From sequence record MH791411.1: a DNA stretch of 64,000 nucleotides, one strand, 5' to 3'. Made by a program: the position numbers and the translations under genes. Source of the DNA: Escherichia phage Ecwhy_1. Below the pieces are notes generated by a model. That model was not told the DNA's origin and did not search any database. It saw nothing but the letters and a program-made list of their open reading frames with translations. Of this stretch, positions 1 to 20,242 are shown in pieces (positions within the stretch are counted from its first letter, which is position 1; each line of letters opens with the position of its first letter).

Positions 1-63
1 TTAACGCTGAAGTTTAAAAATGCCTTGACTTTTTTATGATTCAGTACTAAATCCTTTTACGCA

Positions 64-273
64 TTAATCCTTCGTTACGCTTACGATTATCTGTGTATCC
101 CCATAGTCCTGCCATACTTCCACGCCAGCCGTCGCCTTGGTTAGTCGTGCTGTCATCTGCTTAATGGTCTTAGGCTTTAGTGGAACCTGTTGCAGTACTG
201 TACGCATAGCACTATCGACGTTATCATGTACGCCTGCAATAGTGCCTAGAACGCTATATACTGTATAGATCAT
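64..273 (-). CDS. hypothetical small protein (69 aa)
   Basis: ORF; SD CAGGAG upstream of ATG. Confidence 0.55.
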   Translation of the reverse strand: MIYTVYSVLGTIAGVHDNVDSAMRTVLQQVPLKPKTIKQMTARLTKATAGVEVWQDYGDTQIIVSVTKD

Positions 274-341
274 GTGTATGTACTCCTGATATAGTTAAGG
301 CCGCTAGAGAGCGGCCTATGATGTTTGATGATGTGTAACGC

Positions 342-743
342 TTACAGTCCTAAGATAGTGCGTGCTTCGTTACGTTCCGTACACAGCTGCATGATGTGAG
401 CAAGTAAGTCCTTGCTAATGTATCCGGTGTTCATAGCTTCACGAATAGATACATCATAAGCACCGAACCCAGTGCGAACGATACGCACATCATTCAGGTT
501 AGTATTATAGATACCGCCGAGATCAACGGCTTCGAATACTACATCAACAGAATATTCATTGTTGCCATCGTGGAAGTTTTCCAGTGCAATAGTATTGGAA
601 ACCGCCCAACGTTTGCAGTTTCCAATGATGCGGCACTGTTCCGGTTGGATAGTGCCATTACTTACAGCGTACTCCAGTGCATCTTTACCAAAAGTCCGAG
701 CCAGTACTAAAACGTCAGCGAAGGAAGTGATTGAGAAGGTCAT
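342..743 (-). CDS. hypothetical protein (133 aa)
   Basis: Track ORF 342-806 trimmed to internal ATG preceded by SD AAGGAG; sigma70-like promoter + 5'UTR hairpin upstream. Confidence 0.6.
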   Translation of the reverse strand: MTFSITSFADVLVLARTFGKDALEYAVSNGTIQPEQCRIIGNCKRWAVSNTIALENFHDGNNEYSVDVVFEAVDLGGIYNTNLNDVRIVRTGFGAYDVSIREAMNTGYISKDLLAHIMQLCTERNEARTILGL

Positions 744-828
744 GATAAAACTCCTTAATTTAGGAGGGAGAACCATTTCCCCCTCTCTATGTAAAACATT
801 ATACATGAATCTAAGTACTATGCAAGTA

Positions 829-1164
829 CTATTTCATTTTAATACCTGGATTCAGGTAGCGGTGAGATCCATATTCTGGATCGGTTTCGGTCCAGTACTG
901 TAAATCTATAGTACCTTTAGCGTTAATCTTATCTACCAGCTTATTCATCTTAGCGTATACTACATCAGCATCGATGCGTTTAAAGCCAGTGGCTTTAGTG
1001 AAGTAGTAGTGATTTGCTTCACTATCATTCAGGATGTACCGAGAACCGTCAGCCGTTTGTGCGACAATGAATGAGAATGATACTTTACGATCAAGGCCGT
1101 CGCAGTATACAGATGAATCATTGGTACGGATGAAAGCTTTAACGATAGCGATTGAAGTAGTCAT
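829..1164 (-). CDS. hypothetical protein (111 aa)
   Basis: ORF; SD AGGAG. Confidence 0.6.
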   Translation of the reverse strand: MTTSIAIVKAFIRTNDSSVYCDGLDRKVSFSFIVAQTADGSRYILNDSEANHYYFTKATGFKRIDADVVYAKMNKLVDKINAKGTIDLQYWTETDPEYGSHRYLNPGIKMK

Positions 1165-1314
1165 TTTGAATCTCCTAACTTTGTGGGCCGTCGCACCATT
1201 GCCGCCCTACGAGATACATTATTGCAGTACTGATATACTTTGTCAATACTTTTTTATTAATAGTTTTAGTTCCACCAGCAGATAGTTACTCACCGTTATT
1301 AACTATATATTTTG

Positions 1315-1400
1315 GATACACTTATGCACCCTGTGGGCTAGTTTTTGTCTATGCGTATATAATAGCAAAGGGACTGACCTGAGTCAATCCCTTTTTTTAT
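1315..1400 (-). repeat. repeated terminator-promoter-leader module (copies also at about 4065-4160, 7340-7430, 11345-11440)
   Basis: GATACACTTATGCACCCTGTGGGC..TATATAATAGCAAAGGGACTGACCGGAGTCAATCCCTTTTT. Confidence 0.55.
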
Positions 1401-1409
1401 TCTTTTTTG

Positions 1410-1610
1410 TTAGATGATTCTCCAATCATCAACGATCATGGTAAGATACCGAACCAGTGATTCGAGTGATTCGTGTTCTCGATAGTCTGACGCACCGCCA
1501 GCGGTACAAGTACAGCCGATTAAGCCGTTTTGCAATTCCTTAATCTGTACATCGATAAGGTTGGCTTTAGCTTCTTTCAGTACTTCAACCAGGGCGATAG
1601 CGATAGACAT
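1410..1610 (-). CDS. hypothetical small protein (66 aa)
   Basis: ORF; SD GGAG; promoter TTG..TATAAT + hairpin GGGGGAATAGTTCTCCC upstream. Confidence 0.55.
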   Translation of the reverse strand: MSIAIALVEVLKEAKANLIDVQIKELQNGLIGCTCTAGGASDYREHESLESLVRYLTMIVDDWRII

Positions 1611-1700
1611 AATGTTTTACTCCAAACTATTGGCGGGAGAACTATTCCCCCGCTCTATGTAAAACATTATACATTACTGGTTAGTACTGTCAAATAGTTT

Positions 1701-1958
1701 TTATGAAATATCTTCGATGTAGTCGGCCCATTTCATTTTTTCAGTACTGTCAATGGCTACCGGATTATTTGGATCAAACCATTCACCATTACCGCAATAC
1801 ATACCAACGGCTACGGTTTTATAGCCATCCTGGGCCGTACACCACGACATTGCACGATAGATATGGCCTTTAACTGGTTGTAGTACTGGTAACGTTTTAT
1901 GGTCTTCTACGTAGGCCATCGCTTGATGATTTACCCGATATTGTGTGAACTGTTCCAT
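1701..1958 (-). CDS. hypothetical protein (85 aa)
   Basis: ORF; SD AAGGGGAAAC; TTGACA-N17-TGTAAT upstream. Confidence 0.6.
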   Translation of the reverse strand: MEQFTQYRVNHQAMAYVEDHKTLPVLQPVKGHIYRAMSWCTAQDGYKTVAVGMYCGNGEWFDPNNPVAIDSTEKMKWADYIEDIS

Positions 1959-2034
1959 TATGTTTCCCCTTGTAGTTAGTAAAGTTATTACATCAGTACT
2001 ATCAAGCTATGTCAATAGTACTGAAATAAAACTT

Positions 2035-2259
2035 TTAGATTAGATTATTGAGGCCGTCAATGGTAGACTCACTTTCTTCTTTCTCCCATTGTCGGTAGTA
2101 CTTCCATGCTTCATGATAGGTGGCGATTAGTTCATCTTTTTGATCCTGGTTACATGCCAGTACTGAATCACGGTGAGCGGTGTTATAGATAGAATCGAAT
2201 GATTTCTTCTCTTCTGCCAGGTTAGCTACTTCCCGCATCAGTTCATCAAAGTTAGCCAT
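2035..2259 (-). CDS. hypothetical protein (74 aa)
   Basis: ORF; SD AAAGGAG; TTGCAT-N17-TATAAT then perfect hairpin GGGGGAGATATCCTCCCCC. Confidence 0.6.
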   Translation of the reverse strand: MANFDELMREVANLAEEKKSFDSIYNTAHRDSVLACNQDQKDELIATYHEAWKYYRQWEKEESESTIDGLNNLI

Positions 2260-2326
2260 TTTATTACTCCTTTTAGTGGGGGAGGATATCTCCCCCTATG
2301 CAAAACATTATACTTTGTTTTAGTTA

Positions 2327-2590
2327 TTATGCAAGTACTTTTTTCATATAAACATTAAATTCTACACCGCCGTAACCTTCCACGATGATATGTTTTGCGT
2401 TATCACGTTTGCACATAGTGAAACCATCGTTTACGTGTTTTGCATTTTCCAGGGCGACATCACCGATAGCGGCACATACGGCACTAATAACAGTATTCCG
2501 CAAAGTACTGGTATCATTGGCGGTCATAGTAGTTTGCAGTACTACGTTGTCGTATACGTGTGCATTGATAGTGATTTCGATAGTGTTCAT
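2327..2590 (-). CDS. hypothetical protein (87 aa)
   Basis: Track ORF trimmed to MNTIEI start with SD CAGGAG; promoter+hairpin upstream. Confidence 0.6.
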   Translation of the reverse strand: MNTIEITINAHVYDNVVLQTTMTANDTSTLRNTVISAVCAAIGDVALENAKHVNDGFTMCKRDNAKHIIVEGYGGVEFNVYMKKVLA

Positions 2591-2677
2591 GGTGTATCTC
2601 CTGGACTTGAGGGGAAACCATTTCCCCCTCTCGATATAAAACATTATACGTTAATCTAACTACAATGCAAGTACTTT

Positions 2678-2869
2678 TTAAATTTTATTTCCGATATAGT
2701 CCGGCATGTTCTTTTCAGTCATACGCTTTGCTAATGTCTGCATATGGCTTATAGCGTTCAAGGTGTCTTCCTCCAGGGATGAATCGAGATAATCAGGATC
2801 ATTCTTCACCTTGCAATGATTATGATAGCGTAGTACTGCCAGTACTTTTTTAACTTCTTCTACTGTCAT
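2678..2869 (-). CDS. hypothetical small protein (63 aa)
   Basis: ORF; 4-nt overlap with upstream gene suggests coupling. Confidence 0.5.
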   Translation of the reverse strand: MTVEEVKKVLAVLRYHNHCKVKNDPDYLDSSLEEDTLNAISHMQTLAKRMTEKNMPDYIGNKI

Positions 2870-3138
2870 AATAAGTACCCCACTTCGTTAGCTTTCAGGT
2901 TAGTATCAATCATCAGTGGATTTTTGTAGTTCACAAAACGAGTAGTTTTCTCGATAGCGAATCCCATATAATCCAGCTTACTAACAGTACATTCATTCTT
3001 AAAAACTTCTTTCGCTGCATCGATGGCTGATTGCATGGATAACCGACCATCTAAATTAATGTTTCCAAATGATCCACCAGCAGAAGTAGGATTACCGTTC
3101 ATATCTTTAATGATCATAGTAGCGGAGTAGCTGGACAT
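2866..3138 (-). CDS. hypothetical protein (90 aa)
   Basis: ORF; SD AAAGGAAAC; TTGACA-N17-TATAAT + hairpin GGGGAGAACTATTCTCCCC upstream. Confidence 0.6.
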   Translation of the reverse strand: MSSYSATMIIKDMNGNPTSAGGSFGNINLDGRLSMQSAIDAAKEVFKNECTVSKLDYMGFAIEKTTRFVNYKNPLMIDTNLKANEVGYLL

Positions 3139-3163
3139 AATTTTGTTTCCTTTTATTGGTGTG

Positions 3164-3182
3164 GGGAGAACTATTCTCCCCT
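3164..3182 (-). promoter_or_regulatory. 5'UTR hairpin GGGGAGAA-CTA-TTCTCCCC (example of recurring G-rich leader hairpins)
   Basis: Perfect 8-bp inverted repeat between -10 and SD; no T-run after it on the transcribed strand. Confidence 0.55.
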
Positions 3183-3193
3183 TGATGTAAACT

Positions 3194-3222
3194 ATTATAC
3201 AGTACTAAAATACTTTGTCAAA
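3194..3222 (-). promoter_or_regulatory. sigma70-like promoter TTGACA-N17-TATAAT (example of about 40 similar units)
   Basis: Reverse strand reads TTGACAAAGTATTTTAGTACTGTATAAT; AGTACT in spacer. Confidence 0.6.
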
Positions 3223-3227
3223 TACTT

Positions 3228-3635
3228 TTATTCGCCCATATAGATTAGATTATCATCGCCTACATAGGGATCGCAAACGTTGATTTCTTCACAGTACTTC
3301 GTGAATACATCGCCATAGTGACCTAAACCACGATCCCAAAAACCAGTTCCGTGACCTTCGCGGGTAAGGAACAGATCATGACCAGCTTGCTCATAACCGT
3401 AATCAATAAACATACCGCGAACTACTTCCAGATCATTACCGTGTTTCTCAATGAAGCGAGAACATGCAATCACCGCCGCTTGACGTGCTTCATCAGATAA
3501 CTCATAATCTTCCAGGTAATCGCCGTTATCATTATGTACAGTACTGAATTGCATAGCTTCAATGTAAGCTACAACCATTGCAGCATGATTTTTATCGTTA
3601 GTGATGTTCCGAGCGAGATTAGTAGTAGTAGACAT
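3228..3635 (-). CDS. hypothetical protein (135 aa)
   Basis: ORF; SD AAGGAATAAAATC; promoter+hairpin upstream. Confidence 0.6.
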   Translation of the reverse strand: MSTTTNLARNITNDKNHAAMVVAYIEAMQFSTVHNDNGDYLEDYELSDEARQAAVIACSRFIEKHGNDLEVVRGMFIDYGYEQAGHDLFLTREGHGTGFWDRGLGHYGDVFTKYCEEINVCDPYVGDDNLIYMGE

Positions 3636-3718
3636 GATTTTATTCCTTATTGTATTGGGGAGAACTATTCTCCCCTTGATGTAAACTATTATACAGTACT
3701 GATATACTTTGTCAATAC

Positions 3719-3940
3719 TTAATTACGTTTAAAATGATATGTGCCTTTATCATCCTGTACGCCCCATACTGATTTACCATCAACACCAGTGAAGCCGGAT
3801 TGTAATTCAATATGGAAACCATTATTATCAACTACAAAAACTTTTTTATTTTCATCCCGATAACATTGATATTCTGAATCAACATTAAAGGCCGCATCAT
3901 TCAGACGATTGGAAGCGTAAATGCAAGTCATTGTAGTCAT
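3719..3940 (-). CDS. hypothetical protein (73 aa)
   Basis: Track ORF trimmed to MTTMTC start; promoter+hairpin upstream. Confidence 0.55.
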   Translation of the reverse strand: MTTMTCIYASNRLNDAAFNVDSEYQCYRDENKKVFVVDNNGFHIELQSGFTGVDGKSVWGVQDDKGTYHFKRN

Positions 3941-4164
3941 GATTTTATTCCTTAATATACCAGGGAGAACCATTCCCCCTCTCGATATAAAACATTATAC
4001 TTGATTCTAAGTACAATGCAAGTACTTTTTTAAAAATAGTTTTCAGTACTGAATACTTATATAATAGATACACTTCCGCACCCTATGGGTCAGTGAGTTA
4101 TCTCTCAATGGATATATAATAGCAAAGGGACTGACCGGAGTCAATCCCTTTTTTTAATCTTTTT

Positions 4165-4749
4165 TTATCGTGTTACCTTACTTGCTGCCACATCACGCTT
4201 TTTATAGTACTGATTCCAGATATTGCTGGTTAAACCGTAATCAAGTACTTTAATAAGTCCATTACGATCCTGGCCGATATTCTGTTTTCTGATATCTCTT
4301 ATCGTTAGTGTTGATAATGTATCATCAACGTGTTGTAGTGCATCAGCAAAGCGGTGCTGGCGTTCGATTGCATTACGTTTAATATTGTACTTTAATTCAT
4401 TGCACGCGTTTACGTGCTTCACACTGCCTTTGCTTGCAGTACTCAACCGATCCATAACGATAAACATATTATCAGGATCGCATAAATGCATATGCACCTT
4501 TGCAAAGTACTGTTTCAATTGAGGGCGGTCATAGTCTAAAAAATTCCATACCTTACATTCAGTTTCATTTTGTTCTACACCCGCATCACAATTCGCGACC
4601 TTAATCACTAACCGATCATTTAAAGCGAAAACTATACGGGAAGAACCAGCACCGATGATCTCCAGGCCAGCTAACCGACAAGCTGAAAGGATCTCTTTGT
4701 TGGTTTCCATTTCTGACAGTGTACGGATGAATTTAGTATAATTACGCAT
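4165..4749 (-). CDS. protein kinase-like protein (194 aa)
   Basis: Trimmed to MRNYTKF start with SD AAGGAG; motifs IGAGSSRIV (Gly loop), VIKV (Lys), DIRKQN (catalytic-loop-like), DYG (DFG-like). Confidence 0.5.
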   Translation of the reverse strand: MRNYTKFIRTLSEMETNKEILSACRLAGLEIIGAGSSRIVFALNDRLVIKVANCDAGVEQNETECKVWNFLDYDRPQLKQYFAKVHMHLCDPDNMFIVMDRLSTASKGSVKHVNACNELKYNIKRNAIERQHRFADALQHVDDTLSTLTIRDIRKQNIGQDRNGLIKVLDYGLTSNIWNQYYKKRDVAASKVTR

Positions 4750-4780
4750 TGCATGTTCTCCTTGAGTTAATGAAACTATA

Positions 4781-5023
4781 TTACAGTACTTTACTATCAA
4801 TGGCAACTACTTTTTTAACATTAACGGCGTGGATCACTTCCTTCGTGTTTTTAGTACTGAATACTTTCGCCGCTCCTTGTTCGACCGTGATACGATAGCG
4901 ACCATTAACATCAACCATATTAATAAAGTCCGGCGTGCTGAATGGTGTTGTTTTACATTTGAGTACTGTTAACAGTTCCACCAGCGATGTAGTTTCTTTG
5001 ATACGTTTTTCTAAAGTAATCAT
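4781..5023 (-). CDS. hypothetical protein (80 aa)
   Basis: Trimmed to MITLEK start; TTGACA-N17-TACTAT and SD GGGGGAAAC upstream. Confidence 0.55.
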   Translation of the reverse strand: MITLEKRIKETTSLVELLTVLKCKTTPFSTPDFINMVDVNGRYRITVEQGAAKVFSTKNTKEVIHAVNVKKVVAIDSKVL

Positions 5024-5080
5024 TTTGTTTCCCCCGTGTTGGTATGTACATATAGTACTAAAACATTTGAGTACTGTCAA

Positions 5081-5299
5081 TTAGATAATATTATATTTCT
5101 TAAAATAAAATGCGTCCTGTGTTGGTTGATACTCGATACCGTTACCGTTATTGACTTCAACTAATAAACCTTTGTCAATTAGTTTTTTAATAGTACGATA
5201 CCCTTGTTGAAAATTGGTAAAATGTGAATCATTACGAAAGGTATAACCGTGCTTAACTGCTTCATCAATAGTTTTCTTTTCGATTTTAGATAATTTCAT
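5081..5299 (-). CDS. hypothetical protein (72 aa)
   Basis: Trimmed to MKLSKI start; promoter/leader near-identical to that of 4781-5023. Confidence 0.55.
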   Translation of the reverse strand: MKLSKIEKKTIDEAVKHGYTFRNDSHFTNFQQGYRTIKKLIDKGLLVEVNNGNGIEYQPTQDAFYFKKYNII

Positions 5300-5352
5300 T
5301 TTGTTTCTCCCGTGTTGGTATGTGTACATAGTACTAAAACAATTGAGTACTG

Positions 5353-5607
5353 TCAACGTGATATTAGTTTTATTTTCTTATTGTATTGTTGATGCTCATA
5401 AAGGTTTATCTTTCCTGTGTTCTCGATTACTATCCTGTTGTTAGTGTCCACGTCGATTACACGCAGTTTCCCGTTGCTTAACTTCCTAGGTAATAGGTTA
5501 CCATTAATAAACTCATTAGCAAGCTGTACGGCCTTTGTGATGATTCTCTGAGGTGCTTTATAGTGTACCCGTAAGATGTTATCTTTATATAGTTGAACCT
5601 TAATCAT
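5353..5607 (-). CDS. hypothetical protein (84 aa)
   Basis: ORF; SD AGGA; follows an intrinsic terminator. Confidence 0.55.
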   Translation of the reverse strand: MIKVQLYKDNILRVHYKAPQRIITKAVQLANEFINGNLLPRKLSNGKLRVIDVDTNNRIVIENTGKINLYEHQQYNKKIKLISR

Positions 5608-5620
5608 TTTGTTTGTCCTA

Positions 5621-5647
5621 TAAAAAAGGCGGGAACTGATCCCGCCG
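5621..5647 (-). terminator. intrinsic terminator
   Basis: Hairpin GGCGGGATCAGTTCCCGCC + TTTTTTAT on - strand. Confidence 0.6.
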
Positions 5648-5668
5648 TGTTGTTAGTACTGCAAGTTA

Positions 5669-6064
5669 TTAGATAACCTGGCGGCGTTTACTGTATACTG
5701 TTACACGATTACCCTTACGATCATGTCGGATCTCTTTCTGGTTGCGAATCAGTTCACTTGGACGCTTAAGGTTTGCCAGGTGATCCGCGTGAGTCCATGC
5801 GGTGTGGTTTACCTGTACTTTGATATCAGAATCAGCGATAAACTCATCTTGTGCGTCAAGTATTGCCGCCAGCATATCCGCTCGTTTTAGTTCTGCTGCT
5901 GTCAGTACTGGCTCAGGTGAATTCACAATATCAGAGATTTCTTTGAACTGTACGGCCCAGCGTTGACCTTTCGTTGCATCTTTGCCCATGTCTTTAAATG
6001 CTGCTCCTTCCTCGCGTGCAACAATACGGGCAGCTTCACGGGTAGCGTAGAATTTAGTAATCAT
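5669..6064 (-). CDS. hypothetical protein (131 aa), paralog of 19079-19345
   Basis: ORF; shared motifs KFYATREAARIVAR..FKDMG and DRKGNRVTVY; TTGACA-N17-TATAAT upstream. Confidence 0.6.
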   Translation of the reverse strand: MITKFYATREAARIVAREEGAAFKDMGKDATKGQRWAVQFKEISDIVNSPEPVLTAAELKRADMLAAILDAQDEFIADSDIKVQVNHTAWTHADHLANLKRPSELIRNQKEIRHDRKGNRVTVYSKRRQVI

Positions 6065-6159
6065 GGTATACATCCTATTAGTTGAGTTAGTACTACAAGT
6101 TAGAGTCTATTATAAAGTACTATCTGGGCAATGTCAAATAGTACTTTAAATGGATTCTA

Positions 6160-6483
6160 TTACATGTCTTTCTTACGTTTTACATCGTGGTAGCGAACTG
6201 TTATTTCTTTGTTGATCTCTTCCTCGATGCGATGAATAACTTTTTCTTTCGGGTTGAAACCTATAACGGTTTCTTTAATGATCTCCAAGCCCGTGTATTC
6301 GCCTTGTGTACCGTAACCGTATGTAAAGGTTTCGTGTCCCAGGTCTTCCCAGCGGTCGCCAATTAACGCAGACACGTAGCAAGAGTGGTAAGTATTGCCG
6401 TGTGAATCAGTCCACCGATTAACGTTAATGTCAAAGGAGGTTACAATTTTCAATTCTACTTTCTGGGCAAGGATCATAGCCAT
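6160..6483 (-). CDS. hypothetical protein (107 aa), paralog of 13003-13326
   Basis: ORF; shared motif RWTDSHGNTYHSC..FTYGY; promoter+hairpin upstream. Confidence 0.6.
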   Translation of the reverse strand: MAMILAQKVELKIVTSFDINVNRWTDSHGNTYHSCYVSALIGDRWEDLGHETFTYGYGTQGEYTGLEIIKETVIGFNPKEKVIHRIEEEINKEITVRYHDVKRKKDM

Positions 6484-6570
6484 TTTTATTTCTCTCTCTT
6501 TGTTAGGAGGGGAACCATTCCCCTCGCTTGATGTAAACTATTATACAGTACTAAGATACTTTGTCAATAC

Positions 6571-6753
6571 TTATTTTTTGGAAAGTTTACGCATTAATTC
6601 TACGCTTTCTTGTGAACGTTTTGCTACCTGGCAAGCTGTATGGGCAGTAAACATTTTTGTATAGTCTGACGCTTTGCCACCGAACCGAGCGGCACGTTCA
6701 CGGGCACTTGGAACTAATACTATTTCTTTATTACAGATAGTGCACTTAGCCAT
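6571..6753 (-). CDS. hypothetical small protein (60 aa)
   Basis: Trimmed to MAKCTICNKE start; promoter/leader duplicated from the 6160-6483 gene. Confidence 0.5.
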   Translation of the reverse strand: MAKCTICNKEIVLVPSARERAARFGGKASDYTKMFTAHTACQVAKRSQESVELMRKLSKK

Positions 6754-13415: not shown

Positions 13416-13628
13416 TTACTTACTTTCTTTCGCTGCTTTGTGCGTTGCCACTGCCATAACCACATCAGCACGAACAAAGTTTTTAACCGTGTCGCTGTAA
13501 TAATTGATCGCTTCATCAATATCTGCGAACATCCGATACATACCGCACCACGATACTTTATAACCTGCTTTCACTTCTTCCAGCTTAACCAGTGATTTGT
13601 TAACTTTGATTTTAGTAATGATAGCCAT
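13416..13628 (-). CDS. hypothetical protein (70 aa)
   Basis: ORF; SD GAGGAAAAT; promoter duplicated from 13003 gene. Confidence 0.55.
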   Translation of the reverse strand: MAIITKIKVNKSLVKLEEVKAGYKVSWCGMYRMFADIDEAINYYSDTVKNFVRADVVMAVATHKAAKESK

Positions 13629-13707
13629 TTTATTTTCCTCAGTTGTCTTGATAAAATCTATTATGCCAGTACTATCAAACTATGTCAATAGCACTGTGAT
13701 AATATTT

Positions 13708-13851
13708 TTACTTACTTTTTGCTTTCTTGATTGCTTCCACCTGGTCGGCCCATTCTTTACCCCATACTTGTAAATTATAATGGTACTGGCAAAGAGCAAC
13801 GCCCCGCTTTAAACCCGTAATAGATTTCTGACCACATTGACAAGTTTTCAT
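13708..13851 (-). CDS. hypothetical small Cys-containing protein (47 aa, not in track)
   Basis: SD AAGGAAAC; promoter + hairpin upstream. Confidence 0.4.
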   Translation of the reverse strand: MKTCQCGQKSITGLKRGVALCQYHYNLQVWGKEWADQVEAIKKAKSK

Positions 13852-13937
13852 TTTAGTTTCCTTGTAGTGGGGAGAACCATTTTCTCCCCTTGATGTAATG
13901 TATTATACTTTATTCGATTTACTTTGCAAGTACTTTT

Positions 13938-14165
13938 TTAATTTAATTCATCAAGGCAAAGGATACGCTCAACGCCCAAATCAGTTAAACTAATCGACGG
14001 CACTTGATAGGTTTCAATGTATGCTACACTTGCCCACTGACCGAACTCATTAACGGCCCAGGTATTCATTGCATTTTGCAATTCCGCACCTTCCTTGTTG
14101 GTAATGACTGCAACTACTTGTTCGTTGCCAGTAGTACCAGATACGCGAGTAATGATAATAGCCAT
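13938..14165 (-). CDS. hypothetical protein (75 aa)
   Basis: Trimmed to MAIIIT start; promoter+hairpin. Confidence 0.55.
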   Translation of the reverse strand: MAIIITRVSGTTGNEQVVAVITNKEGAELQNAMNTWAVNEFGQWASVAYIETYQVPSISLTDLGVERILCLDELN

Positions 14166-14401
14166 TGTTTTGATTCCTTTGATTTGGAAGGAGAACCGTT
14201 TCCCCCTCTCGATGTAAAACATTATACGCTAATCTCTTAATCGTGCAAGTACTTTTTATTACTTTTTGCAAAATACTTTAAACGCTCTCAATCGCGTTCT
14301 TACAGCCTTAACGCCACCAGCTAGGGCAATGCATCAGATAATCAGTTTAATGCGTTAGAATCGTTTCTAGGCGGTGCTGGTGGCATGGTAAACGATAAAC
14401 A

Positions 14402-14430
14402 CAAAAAAGCCCACCGTTTAAGGTGGGCTA
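14402..14430 (-). terminator. intrinsic terminator
   Basis: Hairpin AGCCCACC-TTAAAC-GGTGGGCT + TTTTTTGT on - strand. Confidence 0.65.
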
Positions 14431-14450
14431 GTGATTCAGTACTTTAATTG

Positions 14451-14933
14451 TTATGCTTCAACTTTGCGATGAGATTCGATCCATTCCTCGCGAGTCATAC
14501 CGCTGGCGTTAATCGCGTCCAGTACTACCGCAATGCAGTTACCACGCACCGGAATCAGATATTCTTCCCCGTTGTCCAGTACTACCGCTACGCGTTCCTG
14601 AATCCATTTTTTGGCTTTTACTTCTGGCTTGTCTTCCCCATACTTAACCGCCAGGGCTTTTTGTGCCATCTCTGTAACTACTTCCAGATCCAATCCAACT
14701 ACTGCCGCCTGAATACTTTCGATTGTTGCTTGTAGTTCTGCTTCACGGGCCGCCTTTGCCGCTTCAATTTCTGCCGCTTTATTTGCTTGTAGTTCTTTCG
14801 CAGTACTGTACGCGATGTTAAAATTATTGCGTACCGCTTTCATGGTATCGTTATCCAGTTCAGCCAGGATCTCAGCCGCGACGTTAGTTTCATTTGCTAC
14901 CAGTGCTTTGATGAATGATTTTACATTAGCCAT
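14451..14933 (-). CDS. hypothetical Ala/Glu-rich protein (160 aa)
   Basis: Trimmed to MANVKS start; SD GAGGA; long structured leader; terminator downstream. Confidence 0.6.
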   Translation of the reverse strand: MANVKSFIKALVANETNVAAEILAELDNDTMKAVRNNFNIAYSTAKELQANKAAEIEAAKAAREAELQATIESIQAAVVGLDLEVVTEMAQKALAVKYGEDKPEVKAKKWIQERVAVVLDNGEEYLIPVRGNCIAVVLDAINASGMTREEWIESHRKVEA

Positions 14934-14989
14934 TTTATAAATCCTCAATTAAAGTTTAGTTTACGTTTATTAGTGTATCAAAGTTTTCT

Positions 14990-15060
14990 CGACGTGTCCA
15001 GTTTTTCGTTCGACTTACTGGCGGTCTACTTAGTGCTCCCCGTCTTGATGTAATACATTC
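14990..15060 (-). promoter_or_regulatory. conserved structured leader, copy 2 (diverged)
   Basis: Shares ACATCAAGACGGGGA..AAGTA..CGAAAAACT with copies 1 and 3. Confidence 0.4.
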
Positions 15061-15130
15061 TACGCTTTTCTGCGGTAATGTCAACTACTTTCTTAAAACT
15101 ATTTTCAAAGTATCTCAGTACTACGATACT

Positions 15131-15160
15131 ACAAAAACAAAAAAGCCCACCAGGTGGGCT
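15131..15160 (-). terminator. intrinsic terminator
   Basis: Hairpin AGCCCACCTGGTGGGCT + T-run on - strand. Confidence 0.6.
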
Positions 15161-15166
15161 ATGTAC

Positions 15167-15397
15167 TTAATCAGTGAGTAAAATATTAAACACTTTACCA
15201 TTTAACGTTATTGGTGCACTGCTACCAGGCACAAGATCCGTTAGTATACCTGCAATCGCTTTATCATTGGCTACCTTTCCAGTGTCCAACAGTACTACAG
15301 TACTGATAAGATTAACGCTCGTTTCAATATCATAATGCACGGCGTTAAGTAGTTGTGTAGTACTGCTTTCGTTAAGTAAAACAATTCGCTTAGTCAT
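15167..15397 (-). CDS. hypothetical protein (76 aa)
   Basis: ORF; terminator downstream. Confidence 0.5.
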   Translation of the reverse strand: MTKRIVLLNESSTTQLLNAVHYDIETSVNLISTVVLLDTGKVANDKAIAGILTDLVPGSSAPITLNGKVFNILLTD

Positions 15398-15418
15398 GAT
15401 GTTACCCCGTAGTATCTA

Positions 15419-15718
15419 TCAACGGCAATTAATAACGCCGGTATGAGTTACTTTCTCGGTATCCATTACAGTGACCGAACCGCGTTTAGCACTGGCATCA
15501 TAATAAATTGTCGTGCTACCGTTTTCGTCTTCTTCATGGAACGGGCCGTTTTTAAATGCTTCCGGCTGGATCTCTAAATCCTTTAATACAATCTCGCCAG
15601 TTCTTTCATCGGTCATTGCAACAGTGCACTGAATGAATTTTTCACTACTTACATCTAATGACGCATTAACAGCGAAAGAGGAAACAGATAAAGCCAGGGC
15701 GATGATTGCAATTTTCAT
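15419..15718 (-). CDS. secreted protein (99 aa), predicted signal peptide
   Basis: N-terminus MKIAIIALALSVSSFAVNA; SD AAGGATAATC; promoter+hairpin. Confidence 0.6.
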   Translation of the reverse strand: MKIAIIALALSVSSFAVNASLDVSSEKFIQCTVAMTDERTGEIVLKDLEIQPEAFKNGPFHEEDENGSTTIYYDASAKRGSVTVMDTEKVTHTGVINCR

Positions 15719-15802
15719 TTGATTATCCTTAGTTACCAGGGGAAACCGTTTCCCCTTGCGATGTAAAATATTATACAGTACTAAAAACTAATTGCAAGTA
15801 CT

Positions 15803-16039
15803 TTATGATTTTTTATAAAACATTTCAGCAGTGATATTTTTACCCGTTGGCTGTACTTTATCCAGAATTTTTTGATGCCCTGGTCGTCCAAAGGAATATG
15901 ATCCGTAAACAGTAAACCAGTAGTTACCCTCAGTGTTTACATGTACAGCACAATAAGGAACACCACGCGATTCATCACTAGTAAAGTGTGATACCGTTCC
16001 CGTTACATTCGCAGACGTTGATTTGATTTGTTCGACCAT
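15803..16039 (-). CDS. hypothetical protein (78 aa)
   Basis: ORF; SD AAGGAATAAG; promoter+hairpin. Confidence 0.55.
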   Translation of the reverse strand: MVEQIKSTSANVTGTVSHFTSDESRGVPYCAVHVNTEGNYWFTVYGSYSFGRPGHQKILDKVQPTGKNITAEMFYKKS

Positions 16040-16148
16040 TTTCTTATTCCTTAGTTACCAGGGGAACCGCTCCCCCTATGCAAAACATTATACGCGTTTA
16101 AAAACTAATTGCAAGTATTTTAATAAAAAGTATTTGAAAAATAGTTGT

Positions 16149-16290
16149 TGACAAGTGCATCCAGTACTGGCATAATTACTACATCAAGACGAAACAGTCA
16201 CTAACCCACCGGGTGCCGAGATCCGTCTATTAAATGATTCAGTACTGAAAAAGTAACGGGGAGTTATTATCTCCCCGTGTTGTTATTTTG
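16149..16290 (+). ncRNA. candidate small RNA: + strand promoter plus about 100 nt ending at a bidirectional hairpin
   Basis: TTGACA (16149)-N17-CATAAT; leader ACATCAAGACGAAACAGTCACTAACCCACCGGGTGC; hairpin GGGGAG..CTCCCC at 16256-16278 + T-rich; no ORF. Confidence 0.35.
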
Positions 16291-16504
16291 TAAGGTATAA
16301 ACAGAAGTCGCCTTTATTTGCTACGCCGCCAGTGTAACGCGAGGAATAGTTAGAAACGTCCTGGACTTCTGCTATTACCAGGGTATCATCATTCAATTCG
16401 TCGCAGAAGCAAACGGCTGGATCTTGTACGCCGATTTTGTCGGCATGTTCCCGCATAGATTTAACCAGTGCTTCCAGTTGGGAAAGAGTAGTGATATTAG
16501 CCAT
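16283..16504 (-). CDS. hypothetical protein (73 aa)
   Basis: Trimmed to MANITT start; promoter+hairpin. Confidence 0.55.
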   Translation of the reverse strand: MANITTLSQLEALVKSMREHADKIGVQDPAVCFCDELNDDTLVIAEVQDVSNYSSRYTGGVANKGDFCLYLTK

Positions 16505-16588
16505 TTTATTTTCCTCATTACCAGGGAGAACCATTTCTCCCTTTGATGTAAACCATTATACAGTACTGAAAACTAATTGCAAGTACTT

Positions 16589-16777
16589 TTAATTAAATTC
16601 CATAAAATCATTTTCAACGTGCACAACAATCTGATTATTTTTAAAGGACGCAGAAAACTCTATACAATCATAAACCGCTTTTTCTGTTACCAGACTATGA
16701 GCACCAATCGGATTAATTGGGGATTGAATTGTTTCAATCTCGTTACCTTGTTCATTAACGATTAAAATATTAAACAT
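16589..16777 (-). CDS. hypothetical small protein (62 aa)
   Basis: ORF; SD CAGGAGTAAC. Confidence 0.5.
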   Translation of the reverse strand: MFNILIVNEQGNEIETIQSPINPIGAHSLVTEKAVYDCIEFSASFKNNQIVVHVENDFMEFN

Positions 16778-16816
16778 TGCCGTTACTCCTGGATAGTGTT
16801 AACTCGATATAAAGTA

Positions 16817-16999
16817 TTATACGCCTTTATTGCTTAGTGTCCAGTGATCACGCATCATACGCCCCGCACGATCCCAGCTAGTAGGCATGGGTATGCCTTG
16901 CAATTCGTTAGGGGAGATCTCGACCTCGATCCCTACATCAATAACAGTCATTCCAGCTTTCGCAGCTTGCTCGCGGATAACCTCAGATAATGTTGTCAT
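16817..16999 (-). CDS. hypothetical small protein (60 aa)
   Basis: ORF; SD CAGGAGC; leader duplicated with 16589 gene. Confidence 0.5.
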   Translation of the reverse strand: MTTLSEVIREQAAKAGMTVIDVGIEVEISPNELQGIPMPTSWDRAGRMMRDHWTLSNKGV

Positions 17000-17073
17000 G
17001 ATTAAAGCTCCTGGATAGTGTTAACTCGATATAAAGTATTATACAGTACTGAAAACTAATTGCAAGTACTTTT

Positions 17074-17334
17074 TTAATATTGTTTGTCGTCGTCTTCCTC
17101 GATGAATTGACCGACGAAATGATCTACTTTCGCTTTGAGGCTTTTATAATCTTCTTCTACTTCCGTTAAACGTTCCTGGTAGTATTCCAATGCTTCAAGA
17201 TACGCCGCCTCAGCAGTTTTTGCACGCATAGCTAAATTCATTCCACGCGTTTCATCAAATAGCCAATAACCATCGGTGCACTGGCTAATAGATAATGACT
17301 TGCTTAGTACTGTATAGCTAATTACTTTACTCAT
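17074..17334 (-). CDS. hypothetical protein (86 aa)
   Basis: ORF; SD GAGGGTTATC. Confidence 0.55.
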   Translation of the reverse strand: MSKVISYTVLSKSLSISQCTDGYWLFDETRGMNLAMRAKTAEAAYLEALEYYQERLTEVEEDYKSLKAKVDHFVGQFIEEDDDKQY

Positions 17335-17391
17335 TAGATAACCCTCAGTAAAGGCGGGAACTATTACCCGCCATTATCTCAGTACTGAATA

Positions 17392-17631
17392 TTACATTCC
17401 AACCATTGCAGCACGGATCGCAGTAGTGCTATACTTAAAGCCGTCCGGCGTTGTAGTAGTACCGTTGGCTTTTAATCTGCGGTACATACATTCCGCAGCA
17501 ATATCTTTAGTTCTACTTTGTGCGATGCAACTTTGAGCAAGCCGATACAATGACTCACCGTTATTAATCCAAAGGCTTACATTCCAATGAGTTTTGTTTT
17601 TGTGTCCGTTGTAAGTTTTAGTACTAGCCAT
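17392..17631 (-). CDS. hypothetical protein (79 aa), paralog of 19432-19671
   Basis: Trimmed to MASTKT start; shared motif GHKNKTHWNVSLWINN..PDGFKYSTTAIRAAMVGM. Confidence 0.6.
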   Translation of the reverse strand: MASTKTYNGHKNKTHWNVSLWINNGESLYRLAQSCIAQSRTKDIAAECMYRRLKANGTTTTPDGFKYSTTAIRAAMVGM

Positions 17632-17721
17632 TTTTAAATCCTCGTTTGAGCGGGGAACCACTCCCCGCCTCGATATAAAGTATTATACGCTTTTAAACTT
17701 AGTTTGCAAGTACTTTTTAAA

Positions 17722-18333
17722 TTAATATTCGATTGATTCCACTACGCCATCAATAACATTGAATTGATACTCGTTACCCTCAATCAGTGCCGTAATGTTT
17801 TCAGTAGTGAATTGATCCTCATATGCATTCTCTAAATCACGGTACAACTTGCGGGACAATTCACGAATAGTTTCAGTGAGTAGTTCCTCAAGCTCATTAA
17901 CTAACGTTTCTTGTTTTGCGGTTAAATCAGTGTAAGCCGATTCAATGTACCCGCTTACAGTATTCTCATGCGAGTAGTGGGAGTGCGAACGTTTTACACT
18001 CATCGCCAAATCATCTTCATTCAGCAAGTGACGGATTGAGCGATACTTAGTTAATGCTCTTACCTTGCGTAAAAACTTCACTGCGTCAACGTGGTCAGTA
18101 CTGATTGATGCACCGTCACCCTGGGACCAAAAACCACTGAATTGTATTTCAGCGTCATTAATGCCATATTCCGGTAGTACTGTTTCTTTATAGTATTCAA
18201 TTTCACTTTCAGAAAAATAATTGTCGTTTGAGTTTTTTTCACGTTCCCGAACCAGTTCGATAGCTGACGTTTGTTGTTCTGCGTTCAATTCAGAAAAAGC
18301 CATAACATAAGTAGTAGTAGTGATAGTTTTCAT
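17722..18333 (-). CDS. hypothetical acidic protein (203 aa)
   Basis: ORF; SD GAGGGTTAC; tandem promoters with long leader. Confidence 0.65.
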   Translation of the reverse strand: MKTITTTTYVMAFSELNAEQQTSAIELVREREKNSNDNYFSESEIEYYKETVLPEYGINDAEIQFSGFWSQGDGASISTDHVDAVKFLRKVRALTKYRSIRHLLNEDDLAMSVKRSHSHYSHENTVSGYIESAYTDLTAKQETLVNELEELLTETIRELSRKLYRDLENAYEDQFTTENITALIEGNEYQFNVIDGVVESIEY

Positions 18334-18399
18334 TTTGTAACCCTCATTCAGTAGTTGATGTAAGTATTATACGCTTTTAAAAACATTTGTCAAACTATT

Positions 18400-18478
18400 T
18401 TATCAGGGGAGTTTTTCGTGTGCCTTACTCCTGGGCTACTTAACGGGAAGTTACTTATTTCGTTCCCCGTCCTGATGT
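18400..18478 (-). promoter_or_regulatory. conserved structured leader, copy 3
   Basis: Near-identical to 7186-7262. Confidence 0.5.
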
Positions 18479-18557
18479 AAAACATTATACGCCTTTAAAC
18501 ATAGTTTGCAAGTACTTTTTAAAAATAGTTTTCAGTACTGAATAGTAAAAAAAAGTA

Positions 18558-18650
18558 TTGACAGCATTATCAAGTACTGGTATAATATACCCCATGACAA
18601 CAGCTAACCCACCGGGTGCACAATTGTAACTATACTAAACTAATTTTTCT
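18558..18650 (+). ncRNA. candidate small/antisense RNA from a + strand promoter
   Basis: TTGACA-N17-TATAAT then AACCCACCGGGTGCAC; convergent with a - strand promoter at about 18700-18735. Confidence 0.3.
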
Positions 18651-18760
18651 ATAGATACACTCCCGCACCCTATGGGCTACGGCTTATCTGCCAATGAATA
18701 CATTATGCCAGTACTGACAAAATAAGTCAATACCGGCAATTGTAAAGATTTGTAAACTGC

Positions 18761-18997
18761 TTATACTGCAATCGCGTCCAGGCTATAATAATAATAAGTG
18801 CCGTATTGGTGTACTTTATTACCTTTTATTTCAGTACTGAATGAATCCGAACGGTTTGCATATGATGTTAATTTAAAGTACTTTGATTTGCTGATACGTT
18901 GCCATACACCACAGATCCGCTGTAAGTAAGTAGTTTTATTCGTGGTAGTATCTTTTACGGTTTTAACTTCAGTCATATACATATTAGTCATTTTCAT
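18761..18997 (-). CDS. hypothetical protein (78 aa)
   Basis: ORF; SD GGAG (start may be the third codon ATG); promoter + hairpin. Confidence 0.5.
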   Translation of the reverse strand: MKMTNMYMTEVKTVKDTTTNKTTYLQRICGVWQRISKSKYFKLTSYANRSDSFSTEIKGNKVHQYGTYYYYSLDAIAV

Positions 18998-19078
18998 TAC
19001 TCCAGGTTATAGGCGGGAAGAGTTCCCGCTCTCGATGTAAAACATTATACGCCATTAAACATAGTTTGCAAGTACTTT

Positions 19079-19345
19079 TTATTCAAGTACTGCAATCTTT
19101 TTAGTACGGTACACGGTCACGCGGTTGCCCTTTCGGTCGAGCTTTATTTCTACCACTCGACGCGATACACTATCGGGACTTTTTAAGGCCGCTAACCAGT
19201 ACTGTAATGATCTGGCGGTACTACGCTTTACAATGGCCCAACGTTTACCACGTTCCGATTGTACGCCCATATCTTTAAACGTTGCCCCGTCCTGGCGTGC
19301 GGCGATCCGAGCTTGTTCACGCGTCGCAAAATACTTAATTTTCAT
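19079..19345 (-). CDS. hypothetical protein (88 aa), paralog of 5669-6064
   Basis: Trimmed to MKIKYF start; SD AAGGGCAAC. Confidence 0.6.
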   Translation of the reverse strand: MKIKYFATREQARIAARQDGATFKDMGVQSERGKRWAIVKRSTARSLQYWLAALKSPDSVSRRVVEIKLDRKGNRVTVYRTKKIAVLE

Positions 19346-19431
19346 GCTGTTGCCCTTATCGTTGGTGTATGAATAAAACACTATTATAAAGTACTATCGC
19401 AAAAAAATGATAGTACTTTAAATAAATTCTA

Positions 19432-19671
19432 TTACATTCCAACCATCGCCGCACGGATCGCAGTAGTGCTATATTTGAATCCGTCCGGTGTTTTATCTTG
19501 TCCAGTCTGTTCTAAAAATAACATCATATGACGGGCCGCATCATTGCGATTAGTGCTATCGTTAATAAAGTCCTGGGCCAACCGATACAATCCCTCATCG
19601 TTATTAATCCAAAGGCTTACATTCCAATGAGTTTTGTTTTTGTGACCTAAGAACATTTTTGATTTAGCCAT
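19432..19671 (-). CDS. hypothetical protein (79 aa), paralog of 17392-17631
   Basis: Trimmed to MAKSKMF start; promoter+hairpin. Confidence 0.6.
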   Translation of the reverse strand: MAKSKMFLGHKNKTHWNVSLWINNDEGLYRLAQDFINDSTNRNDAARHMMLFLEQTGQDKTPDGFKYSTTAIRAAMVGM

Positions 19672-19764
19672 TTTTTTAATCCTCTTATATAGTGGGGAAC
19701 TATTCCCCACCTGATGTAAAACATTATACGCCATTAAACATAGTTTGCAAGTACTTTATTAAAC

Positions 19765-20127
19765 TTATTTGTAAATTTTGCCACTGTCAGCCCATACCAG
19801 GAAACGAGGCATATTATCCCATGCATCTTGTTTTAAGTTTAAGCCGTGCAATTCCTCAGTTGTTGCCATCCCTGGTACTGGCTTACTACACACCGCGAAA
19901 TTTTCGCCCATATACTGATAAACCATCGTCAAATCATTTGAGATCATTATATGGATCATTGAATCCAGCATCAAAGTAGCGGCGTATTGTTCACGCTTAA
20001 GCGGCAACATTGCAATAAGTTCCCGATAAGCTGCAATGTGAATTTTTACAGTTTCAGCCGGAAGACCTTTCATCTCATCGCGGAAGTTTACCAGGTTAAG
20101 CATGATTTTATTGATTTGAGTCGCCAT
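19765..20127 (-). CDS. hypothetical protein (120 aa)
   Basis: Trimmed to MATQINK start; promoter+hairpin. Confidence 0.6.
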   Translation of the reverse strand: MATQINKIMLNLVNFRDEMKGLPAETVKIHIAAYRELIAMLPLKREQYAATLMLDSMIHIMISNDLTMVYQYMGENFAVCSKPVPGMATTEELHGLNLKQDAWDNMPRFLVWADSGKIYK

Positions 20128-20242
20128 CGTTTTAATCTCTCTTAATGTGTAGCGGGAAGTGTTCCCGCTCTCGATGTAAAACATTATACGCTTTTATCAG
20201 TACGGTGCAAGTACTTTCTACAAATACTTTTAAAATAGTTTT

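Follow-up and report, generated by a model that had tools for sequence, protein, structure and literature searches.

Promoter, leader, and hairpin cassettes of a jumbo coliphage resemble the promoter-early stem-loops of T4-type phages

Introduction

The promoter-early stem-loop (PeSL) cassettes of the T4-type phages RB49/phi1, PST/T4, and nt-1/KVP40 sit upstream of ORFans in hyperplastic regions, with a stem-loop at one of five positions within or around the promoter that ends just before the start site; in the view of their authors, they may stop or weaken transcription arriving from upstream and serve in the shuffling of modules and the formation of mini-circles (Arbiol et al. 2010, PMC2839356; Comeau et al. 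2014, PMC4122927). Here, we analyze comparable cassettes in Escherichia phage Ecwhy_1 (MH791411.1), in a stretch of 64,000 nucleotides (nt) that we call the window. They are concentrated at positions 1 to 20184, a block of small minus-strand genes, and the type that concerns us most, class I, consists of a near-consensus σ70 promoter, a conserved leader, a hairpin with a G-rich 5′ and a C-rich 3′ arm, an A-rich tail, a Shine-Dalgarno sequence (SD), and the ATG. From their sequence, these cassettes appear to be a variant of the PeSL whose stem-loop has shifted into the leader, in a phage group for which PeSLs are new.

In RB49, which we inspected, stem-loops such as AGGGGATC-ggt-GATCCCCT precede the start site, being located between the −35 and −10 hexamers or overlapping them. 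Further systems that invite comparison are the 5′-terminal stabilizer stem-loops (the ompA leader, the T7 phi10 leader GGGAGACCACAACGGTTTCCC, and synthetic 5′ hairpins) and the nut sites of phage lambda, where boxA is followed by the boxB hairpin. In phages related to Ecwhy_1, RpoD-like promoters are concentrated in such blocks of short open reading frames (ORFs), with no report of hairpins (PMC5259590), and we found no published description of leader hairpins, or of an excess of the hexamer AGTACT, in Rak2-like phages.

Results and Discussion

Anatomy and census of the class I cassettes

An energy-filtered hairpin search identified the hairpins of 26 class I cassettes in the window, 25 within 1-20184 and one at 50939-50919. 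The preliminary description of this DNA had reported a repeated minus-strand unit of promoter, leader, hairpin, SD, and ATG; such units exist, far beyond chance, with a spacer of 16 bp and not the 17 bp given there. The promoter hexamers are TTGACA or TTGCA(A/T/C), 16 bp, and TATAAT in 25 of 26 units, the sole exception being unit 8750-8673 (TTGCAT-17-TATAGT), and an A/T-rich run (e.g., AAAAAGTAC) lies upstream in most units read. AGTACT, which was said to precede the −35 hexamer, overlaps its first T in 17 of the 26 units but not in all, and a second AGTACTG abuts TATAAT in 10. The conserved initial transcribed leader is TTTACATC(R)AG, the segment between TATAAT and the stem reading (R)NTTTACATC(R)AG; TTTACATC occurs 19 times in the window compared to 5.4±2.4 times in shuffles, and the minus strand of the block accounts for 15 of the 19. 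In IMG/VR, only 2 loci matched the exact pattern TATAATNNTTTACATCNNNGGGG, an outcome that we did not use.

The stem starts 8 to 14 nt (mode 12) past TATAAT and ends 17 to 24 nt ahead of the ATG. Stems have 7 to 9 bp, loops 3 to 5 nt, and folding free energies range from −8.9 to −14.4 kcal/mol; the 5′ arm is G-rich in all 26 units, G·U pairs occur in at least 9, and there are at least 13 different loop sequences (TAG, ATGG, ACGG, ATGA, AAAC, CAC, CTC, and others). Leaders fold better than shuffles (mean z-score −3.6), and in the two full leaders that we folded (8101-8050 and 3687-3633), the hairpin is the sole structure, leaving SD and AUG unpaired in the minimum-energy fold. Transcription is predicted to start 6 to 8 nt past TATAAT, at an A of TTTACA, so that 4 to 7 unpaired nt would precede the stem in the predicted transcript. 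The stem begins at or beyond this predicted +1, from which we infer that the hairpin lies downstream of the start, in the 5′ leader of the gene itself.

The class I cassettes are listed below, all from the energy-filtered search plus per-unit geometry and most also matched by the covariance model described in the next section. The three example hairpins of the preliminary description are among them (3675/3181, 2296, and 15756/2630), there written as read on the plus strand.

20125-20210, minus strand: class I, TTGCAC-16-TATAAT, leader, hairpin AGCGGGAA-CAC-TTCCCGCT (20169-20151), SD, ATG
19669-19750, minus strand: class I, hairpin GGTGGGGAA-TAG-TTCCCCACT (19711-19691)
18989-19071, minus strand: class I, hairpin GCGGGAA-CTC-TTCCCGC (19029-19013)
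17629-17709, minus strand: class I, hairpin GGCGGGGAG-TGG-TTCCCCGCT (17669-17649), with G·U pairs
16502-16582, minus strand: class I, hairpin AGGGAGAA-ATGG-TTCTCCCT (16542-16523)
16037-16114, minus strand: class I, hairpin TAGGGGGA-GCGG-TTCCCCTG (16078-16059)
15716-15797, minus strand: class I, hairpin AGGGGAAA-CGG-TTTCCCCT (15756-15738)
14163-14248, minus strand: class I, hairpin GAGGGGGAA-ACGG-TTCTCCTTC (14208-14187); breakpoints relative to fEgEco12 and JNE01 at 14208 and 14178
13849-13929, minus strand: class I, hairpin GGGGAGAA-AATGG-TTCTCCCC (13889-13869); cassette and ORF also in the rV5-like phage A73
12042-12123, minus strand: class I, hairpin GGGGAGAA-ATGA-TTCTCCCC (12083-12064)
11814-11894, minus strand: class I, hairpin GGGGAGAA-ATGA-TTCTCCCC (11854-11835)
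11209-11291, minus strand: class I, hairpin AGGGGGAA-ACGG-TTTCCCCT (11250-11231)
10771-10855, minus strand: class I, hairpin GGGGAGAA-AAAC-TTCTCCCC (10815-10796)
8673-8750, minus strand: class I with the weaker promoter TTGCAT-17-TATAGT, hairpin AGGGGAA-ACATC-TTCCCCT (8711-8693); right-hand breakpoint of the GNAT-gene indel relative to slurp01
8050-8129, minus strand: class I, hairpin GGGGAGAA-ATGA-TTCTCCCC (8089-8070)
7750-7831, minus strand: class I, hairpin AGGGGAA-TAG-TTCCCCT (7790-7774)
6751-6838, minus strand: class I, hairpin GAGGGGAA-ACGG-TTCCCCTC (6796-6777)
6481-6567, minus strand: class I, near-duplicate of 6751-6838, hairpin GAGGGGAA-TGG-TTCCCCTC (6525-6507)
3938-4021, minus strand: class I, hairpin AGGGGGAA-TGG-TTCTCCCT (3980-3962), with one G·U pair
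3633-3715, minus strand: class I, BLAST query cassette, hairpin GGGGAGAA-TAG-TTCTCCCC (3675-3657)
3136-3221, minus strand: class I, hairpin GGGGAGAA-TAG-TTCTCCCC (3181-3163)
2588-2670, minus strand: class I, hairpin GAGGGGGAA-ATGG-TTTCCCCTC (2630-2609); A-U to C-G compensatory change in the JNE01/slurp01 ortholog
2257-2334, minus strand: class I, hairpin GGGGGAG-ATATC-CTCCCCC (2296-2278)
1608-1693, minus strand: class I, hairpin GCGGGGGAA-TAG-TTCTCCCGC (1653-1633)
741-825, minus strand: class I, hairpin GAGGGGGAA-ATGG-TTCTCCCTC (785-764)
50899-50976, minus strand: class I, the only one outside the block, hairpin GGGGATGA-ACTTC-TCATCCCC (50939-50919)

About 10 of the 26 hairpin loops contain an ATG or GTG with an SD-like G-arm 2 to 3 nt upstream. 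We rejected these as mini-ORFs or decoy starts, given that this spacing is too short and the frames are inconsistent; they are probably incidental. They account for mis-called gene starts in Escherichia phage fEgEco12, from whose annotation the public starts at 20184, 16534, 776, and 18997, in or before the hairpin loop, derive; the SD-supported starts are 20127, 16504, 741, and 18991.

The block holds ∼58 minus-strand genes (gene table transferred from fEgEco12, completed by hand, with start codons corrected by eye), of which 26 (45%) have a promoter plus hairpin, ∼15 a promoter without leader hairpin, and ∼16 no promoter of their own, being translationally coupled or operonic. The earlier statement that nearly every small gene has its own promoter and hairpin was therefore too strong. 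A consensus scan of 1-20000 for promoter-like sites matching at least 10 of 12 positions gave ∼41 sites on the minus strand compared to ∼7 on the plus strand, and up to ten promoters follow each other without terminators. The genes downstream of cassettes encode mostly hypothetical proteins of 47 to 140 amino acids.

The window belongs to an Asteriusvirus-type jumbo coliphage: positions 1-20184 match positions 1630-20904 of fEgEco12 with 98% identity over 94% of their length and also match ∼40 other Asteriusvirus jumbo coliphages (PBECO4/121Q/G17-like, Rak2-related). In the direction of its minus strand, from 20184 to 1, the block is the counterpart of fEgEco12 g01-g056, the first genes past the genome terminus, and several relatives annotate it as a direct terminal repeat. 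Given this location, we take it to be the first-entering, early region, presumably transcribed by the host RNA polymerase.

Covariation of the stems

Because a MAFFT alignment of all 26 units put the arms out of register, we built a covariance model, R1, from the 11 units with 4-nt loops. In the window, the minus strand gave 24 strong and 3 weak matches to R1, and the plus strand a single one (E 0.59) that is the palindromic complement of the 6796 hairpin. Across the window, six Asteriusvirus loci, and one Vequintavirinae locus, it found 157 matches, and the 150 best of these, representing 70 distinct rows from 8 sources, formed our covariation set. In the distinct rows, 96.9% of the cells form standard pairs, and 4 of the 8 pairs have changed on both sides (G-C to A-U and to C-G, 71 such cells), a level reached in 0 of 500 column shuffles; when the partner columns are slid, pairing falls to 58 to 83%. 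Altogether, 41 distinct hairpin sequences retain pairing. The covariation check across copies that the preliminary description had proposed thus came out in favor of its claim that the structure is conserved while the sequences differ.

G·U or U·G occupies 39 cells and A·C at most 12, the majority of the A·C cells reflecting shifts in register that the model imposes on runs of G. A palindrome is identical on both strands, so this asymmetry indicates that it is the sense strand, and hence the mRNA, in which the arms pair, and fits the earlier proposal of an RNA-level element in the 5′ leader.

As the model alignment favors its own structure and many of its rows are related, the strongest independent evidence comes from another genus. 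Klebsiella phage Muenster (Alcyoneusvirus) has the same layout (AGTACTTGAC, CAGTACTGTATAAT, GTATTACATCAAA, hairpin, SD), with unrelated stems at the same position (GGGAATGAA/TTCATTCCC, GGGGATACA/TGTATCCCC, AGAGATTCCAG/CTGGAATCTCT, and GGGAAATTAG/CTAATTTCCC). Since the stems are unrelated, R1 gives only weak matches there, and the Muenster evidence is a reading of the sequence to which no statistic is attached.

The cassettes of three close relatives (fEgEco12, JNE01, and slurp01) show compensatory changes at two orthologous sites, A-U to C-G at 2630 and A-U to G-C at 15756. Between orthologs, loops change fastest (7.7%), compared to 3.9% and 1.8% for the stems and 3.2% for coding sequence. These rates, in which stems are not more conserved than coding sequence, and the many near-identical paralogs (GGGGAGAA-ATGA-TTCTCCCC, the commonest hairpin, makes up 10 of the 70 distinct aligned sequences) are what one would expect if the hairpin had no present function and were a hitch-hiking remnant of one much-copied ancestral cassette. 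We regard this as extremely improbable, however, given the number of distinct hairpins that still pair, the two orthologous compensatory changes, the unrelated stems at the same place in another genus, and the polarity and position kept in an unrelated phage family.

Comparison with intrinsic terminators and PeSLs

Class I hairpins resemble intrinsic terminators in their GC-rich stem of 7 to 9 bp and small loop but differ in having no U-tract and in lying inside the predicted 5′ leader of the following gene. The 8 nt past the stem contain on average 1.6 T (range 0 to 4) and 4.0 A, with a background of ∼2.4 T, whereas four clear terminators of the block (16278, 15160, 14429, and 5646) have 6.5 T at these positions and the class III stem-loops described below 4.3 T. 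A terminator scan of the minus strand listed none of the class I hairpins. We therefore rejected them as intrinsic terminators, in agreement with the preliminary description, which had noted that no T-run follows.

The proposal of the PeSL authors would make the stem-loop an attenuator or terminator that stops or reduces upstream transcription, and perhaps part of its own, insulating tandem promoters from each other; expression would not build up along the block, and short aborted leader RNAs would be a by-product. Experiment backs this reading for one RB49 stem-loop: that of PeSL211/210 cut lacZ expression as much as rrnB T1 (PMC2839356). In Pseudomonas phages, transcripts often end prematurely in the 5′ untranslated region (PMC10914365). 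A block that has only ∼10 canonical terminators for ∼41 promoters would benefit from some insulation, and where the stem-loop lies upstream of the start, as in RB49 and our classes II and III, it can act only on read-through transcripts. Against this stand the A-rich, T-poor class I tails in a genome that elsewhere uses clear U-tracts, the outcome of the terminator scan, and the consideration that a terminator 20 nt into its own transcript would lower the expression of that very gene. We thus judge attenuation to be unlikely.

Nevertheless, the likeness to PeSLs is extensive: (i) both have a near-consensus σ70 early promoter with an AT-rich upstream region; (ii) both have an adjacent stable G(n)-loop-C(n) stem-loop with G·T pairs; (iii) SD and ATG stand at the 3′ end; (iv) dozens of intergenic copies (here 26 of class I, 6 of class II, and 12 of class III) precede small ORFans in a plastic region; and (v) cassettes bound indels and replacements between close relatives. 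Further, classes II and III, with the stem-loop over the −35 hexamer, fit positional subclasses of PeSLs. The differences are the host genome, an Asteriusvirus jumbo phage and not a member of the Straboviridae; the position of the class I stem-loop, 8 to 14 nt past the −10 hexamer in the predicted leader of the gene itself compared to between or over the hexamers in RB49; and, in class I, the lack of a U-tract, the conserved initial transcribed sequence, and the AGTACT flanking both hexamers. The idea of self-contained promoter, stem-loop, and ORFan modules, exchanged by recombination in their regulatory parts, would thus extend from T4-like phages to Rak2-like jumbo and rV5-like phages. At the same time, a stem-loop that is predicted to lie in the gene's own leader, lacks a U-tract, and shows RNA-type covariation calls into question the reading of PeSL stem-loops as terminators only.

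Breakpoints and transfer between phages

Alignment of the block with the same three relatives placed 11 of 12 distinct indel or replacement breakpoints in, or within ∼40 nt of, promoter cassettes, mostly in the promoter spacer, leader, or tail and less in the stem. As selection for intact genes would also put breakpoints between genes, the chimeric junctions weigh more than these counts. The GNAT gene (9110-8754) is absent from slurp01, which has there one chimeric cassette whose −35 hexamer is that of the left cassette, with the −10 hexamer and hairpin coming from the right one. In fEgEco12, another small gene takes the place of 17639-16589; promoter and leader are common up to ...ATATCGAG, after which hairpin and ORF differ. 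Within the window as well, the same promoters occur with different hairpins (19750, 19071, and 18511) and the same hairpins with different promoters (12083 and 11854 compared to 8089). Because of these junctions and mixed combinations, promoter, hairpin, and ORF appear to be separately exchangeable modules joined at conserved segments.

A BLAST search with a 90-nt cassette matched Rak2-like Klebsiella phages, Salmonella Munch-like phages, and an Erwinia jumbo phage. We had not expected the further matches to rV5-like Vequintavirinae of ∼140 to 150 kb. The Vequintavirinae phage A73 carries two cassettes ahead of ORFs homologous to the window genes at 14165 and 13851, which points to horizontal transfer of whole modules and suggests that enterobacterial myoviruses share a pool of portable early-expression cassettes.

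Breakpoints in cassettes and chimeric junctions would also be seen if the element acted purely at the DNA level, as a recombination hotspot, cruciform, or operator, with the RNA hairpin incidental. Reported PeSL mini-circles have their crossovers in or beside the stem-loop (PMC2839356), and the stems studied here are perfect DNA palindromes centred ∼20 bp past the predicted start. The breakpoints we observe, however, avoid the stem for the most part, and homologous recombination needs just the conserved promoter and leader, no hairpin. An operator would retain its half-sites, whereas these arms co-vary, tolerate G·T on one strand, and rarely show A·C. We consider a DNA-level element very unlikely.

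We rejected a palindromic protein operator on the covariation and the G·U asymmetry, its half-site not being conserved. The varying arms and the unrelated Muenster stems exclude an operator of fixed half-sites, and they likewise make a sequence-specific RNA-binding protein unlikely.

Possible function of the leader hairpin

On balance, we lean toward viewing these units as PeSL-type mobile early-gene cassettes whose stem-loop is under selection for base pairing in the sense RNA and probably acts in cis on the fate of early mRNA, through its stability, its processing, or insulation. The preliminary description had named stabilization of mRNA 5′ ends, timing of translation, and recognition by a phage RNA-binding protein or RNase as candidate roles. 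In our view, every gene or small group of genes within the ∼20 kb injected first would have its own unit of promoter, leader, stem-loop, tail, and ATG, in which the 5′-proximal structural module would limit 5′-end-dependent decay or processing, and the stem-loop would keep the A-rich SD/AUG region unstructured and insulated from any following ORF. As up to ten promoters stand in a row without terminators, read-through transcripts would also carry the hairpin in intercistronic position, as a possible block to 3′ exonucleases. The homology for swapping, duplicating, deleting, and moving modules between phages would come from the conserved parts of promoter and leader.

The 5′-terminal stabilizers offer a parallel for such a role, as they combine a short GC-rich hairpin near the start of a strongly expressed mRNA with an SD region free of structure; the T7 phi10 leader also shares the G-rich 5′ arm and C-rich 3′ arm. 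Several points weigh against our preferred reading, though. Classical 5′-terminal stabilizers tolerate few unpaired nt before the stem, with a limit of 2 to 4, and the 4 to 7 that follow from the predicted start exceed this. Between close orthologs, the stems (3.9% and 1.8%) show no clear excess of conservation over coding sequence (3.2%), and many copies are recent paralogs, so that part of the apparent conservation is shared ancestry. With the stem-loop upstream of the start in RB49 and in classes II and III, a role that requires it in the leader of its own gene cannot hold for every PeSL. Finally, scanning RNase E reportedly bypasses simple (orthogonal) stem-loops with ease (PMC9943677), and we have marked down obstruction of RNase E scanning as a mechanism for this reason.

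The fixed distance between the hairpin and the conserved leader TTTACATC(R)AG raises the question of whether ACAUC(R)AG plus hairpin marks early mRNAs for a phage or host RNA-binding factor, be it for N/boxB-like antitermination, RegB-like timed destruction, or translational repression. Class I shares with lambda nut the order of a conserved single-stranded box and, after it, a small GC hairpin near the beginning of early transcripts, and the block encodes putative early regulators, namely, a DksA/TraR-type zinc finger and a weak protein-kinase-like match (E 0.004). In contrast to boxB, however, the closing pairs and loops are not conserved (at least 13 loops, 41 hairpins, and unrelated stems in Muenster), there are 26 copies compared to one per operon in lambda, and no Rfam family matches. 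A sequence-specific reader is hard to reconcile with loops and stems that differ between units, and completely so in Muenster, and ∼15 early promoters have no leader hairpin. Such a recognition signal therefore seems highly doubtful. A variant in which the conserved leader and a hairpin defined by shape only form an RNA “class tag” of early transcripts, with a phage or host factor reading single-stranded ACAUC(R)AG beside any stable stem, is quite unlikely as well; if it were true, early mRNAs would have a common fate, such as protection during host mRNA destruction or synchronous shut-off, and the tag would travel with ORFans among unrelated coliphages (Asteriusvirus, Alcyoneusvirus, and Vequintavirinae) as a plug-and-play expression module.

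Independently of mechanism, the class I cassettes offer ∼26 natural, sequence-diverse cases in one genome for the effect of a promoter-proximal hairpin on the fate of an mRNA. In practical terms, they are compact expression modules predicted to be very strong.

Variant cassettes and other elements of the window

A few further cassettes depart from the class I scheme, and two additional classes place the stem-loop elsewhere. Class II (6 copies) is an AGTACT-containing inverted repeat across the −35 hexamer; class III (12 copies, mostly at 45 to 60 kb) is a G/C stem-loop that holds the −35 hexamer and is followed by T residues.

1162-1246, minus strand: variant cassette, TTGACA-17-AATAAT, with interrupted leader stem GGGCGGC..GACGGCCC
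7185-7300, minus strand: long-structure variant, class I promoter and leader, then a ∼75-nt branched structure, then a second promoter; weak R1 match
18400-18511, minus strand: second copy of the long-structure variant, promoter and leader, then a branched structure
13375-13404, minus strand: class II inverted repeat CAGTACTATTGA-CATAGT-TTGATAGTACTG, spanning the −35 hexamer of a promoter without leader hairpin
13696-13667, 10549-10520, 10287-10258, and 2024-1993, minus strand: further class II copies; variant at 6148-6113
7394-7421, minus strand: class III stem-loop AAAGGGATTGAC-TCCG-GTCAGTCCCTTT, which encloses the −35 hexamer and has T residues behind it, a terminator-promoter composite
11431-11404, 4151-4124, and 1394-1367, and at 60069, 56476, 55694, 54115, 53435, 48956, 47150, and 45515, minus strand: further class III copies

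The long-structure variant, of which the copy at 7266-7185 folds with −21 kcal/mol (z-score −2.9), also occurs at 15084-14965 (minus strand) and in phage A73 from position 3905, with no gene directly after the leader; we consider it a candidate non-coding RNA common to the rV5-like phage. The minus-strand composites at 45488-60069 read (A)AAGGGTTGAC-TTCG-GTCAGCCCTTTT-N-TATAAT-CATTTCATC, stand upstream of larger genes, and match the PeSL subclass whose stem-loop overlaps the −35 hexamer.

Few of the early genes have recognizable domains:

4165-4749, minus strand: short protein-kinase-like protein; weak Pfam match (E 0.004, below Pfam's cutoff), annotated as kinase in relatives
9174-9431, minus strand: DksA/TraR C4 zinc-finger protein
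8754-9110, minus strand: GNAT acetyltransferase, its presence or absence differing between close relatives

A tRNA scan and Rfam searches of the window gave nothing relevant, with zero Rfam matches in the window at the gathering threshold and, at E<1, just two in 1-21500, both at chance level. In the window (1-64000), we counted 286 copies of the palindrome AGTACT compared to ∼22 expected from base composition, most densely in 1-28000, and (C)AGTACT(G) contains each of the three most overrepresented hexamers. In the early block, half of the sites are inside coding sequence, and the motif flanks both promoter hexamers. It is also found in hairpin loops of Muenster; RB49 (0 sites) and A73 (4 sites) have no more copies than expected.

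Another motif, CCCA(Y)(M)GGGTGC, has nine copies compared to 0.02 expected, six on the minus strand (1337-1326, 4089-4078, 7364-7353, 9699-9688, 11369-11358, and 18676-18665) and three on the plus strand (16205-16216, 18608-18619, and 20763-20774); two of the nine face each other at ∼18600-18680. The six minus-strand copies, which we checked, lie ∼15 to 25 nt past the −10 hexamer (∼40 to 50 nt past the −35) of a dedicated strong promoter, often of the type with the stem-loop over the −35 hexamer, and (N5)TGTATC then follows. The unit has no Rfam match and is kept in Muenster (∼8720-8815, 10160-10255, and 13825-13920); it may represent small RNAs or origin- or primer-like transcription units.

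The non-coding stretch from the genome end to the first early gene contains an array at 20962-21113 with 8-bp periodicity, whose octamers resemble C(G/A)T(C/T)(T/C)AGC; taking a reference unit of 48 nt, it comprises 9 overlapping copies, each shifted by 8 bp. Close to it are repeats of TACGCCCAAAAT and 44-nt AGTACT-containing units (20242-20338), and the array may mark an end, packaging, or origin region. Finally, a tandem array of 12 ORFs of 358 to 414 amino acids occupies 26881-42136 on the plus strand; the one ORF scanned (29278-30459) matches RCC1-like repeat (beta-propeller) families. Within this array, at 28038-40276, ten palindromic hairpins GCCAGTA(C/T)-N3-4-GTACTGGC with GTAC recur about every 1.2 kb, one of them being a variant, ACCAGTAC, with an 8-nt loop.

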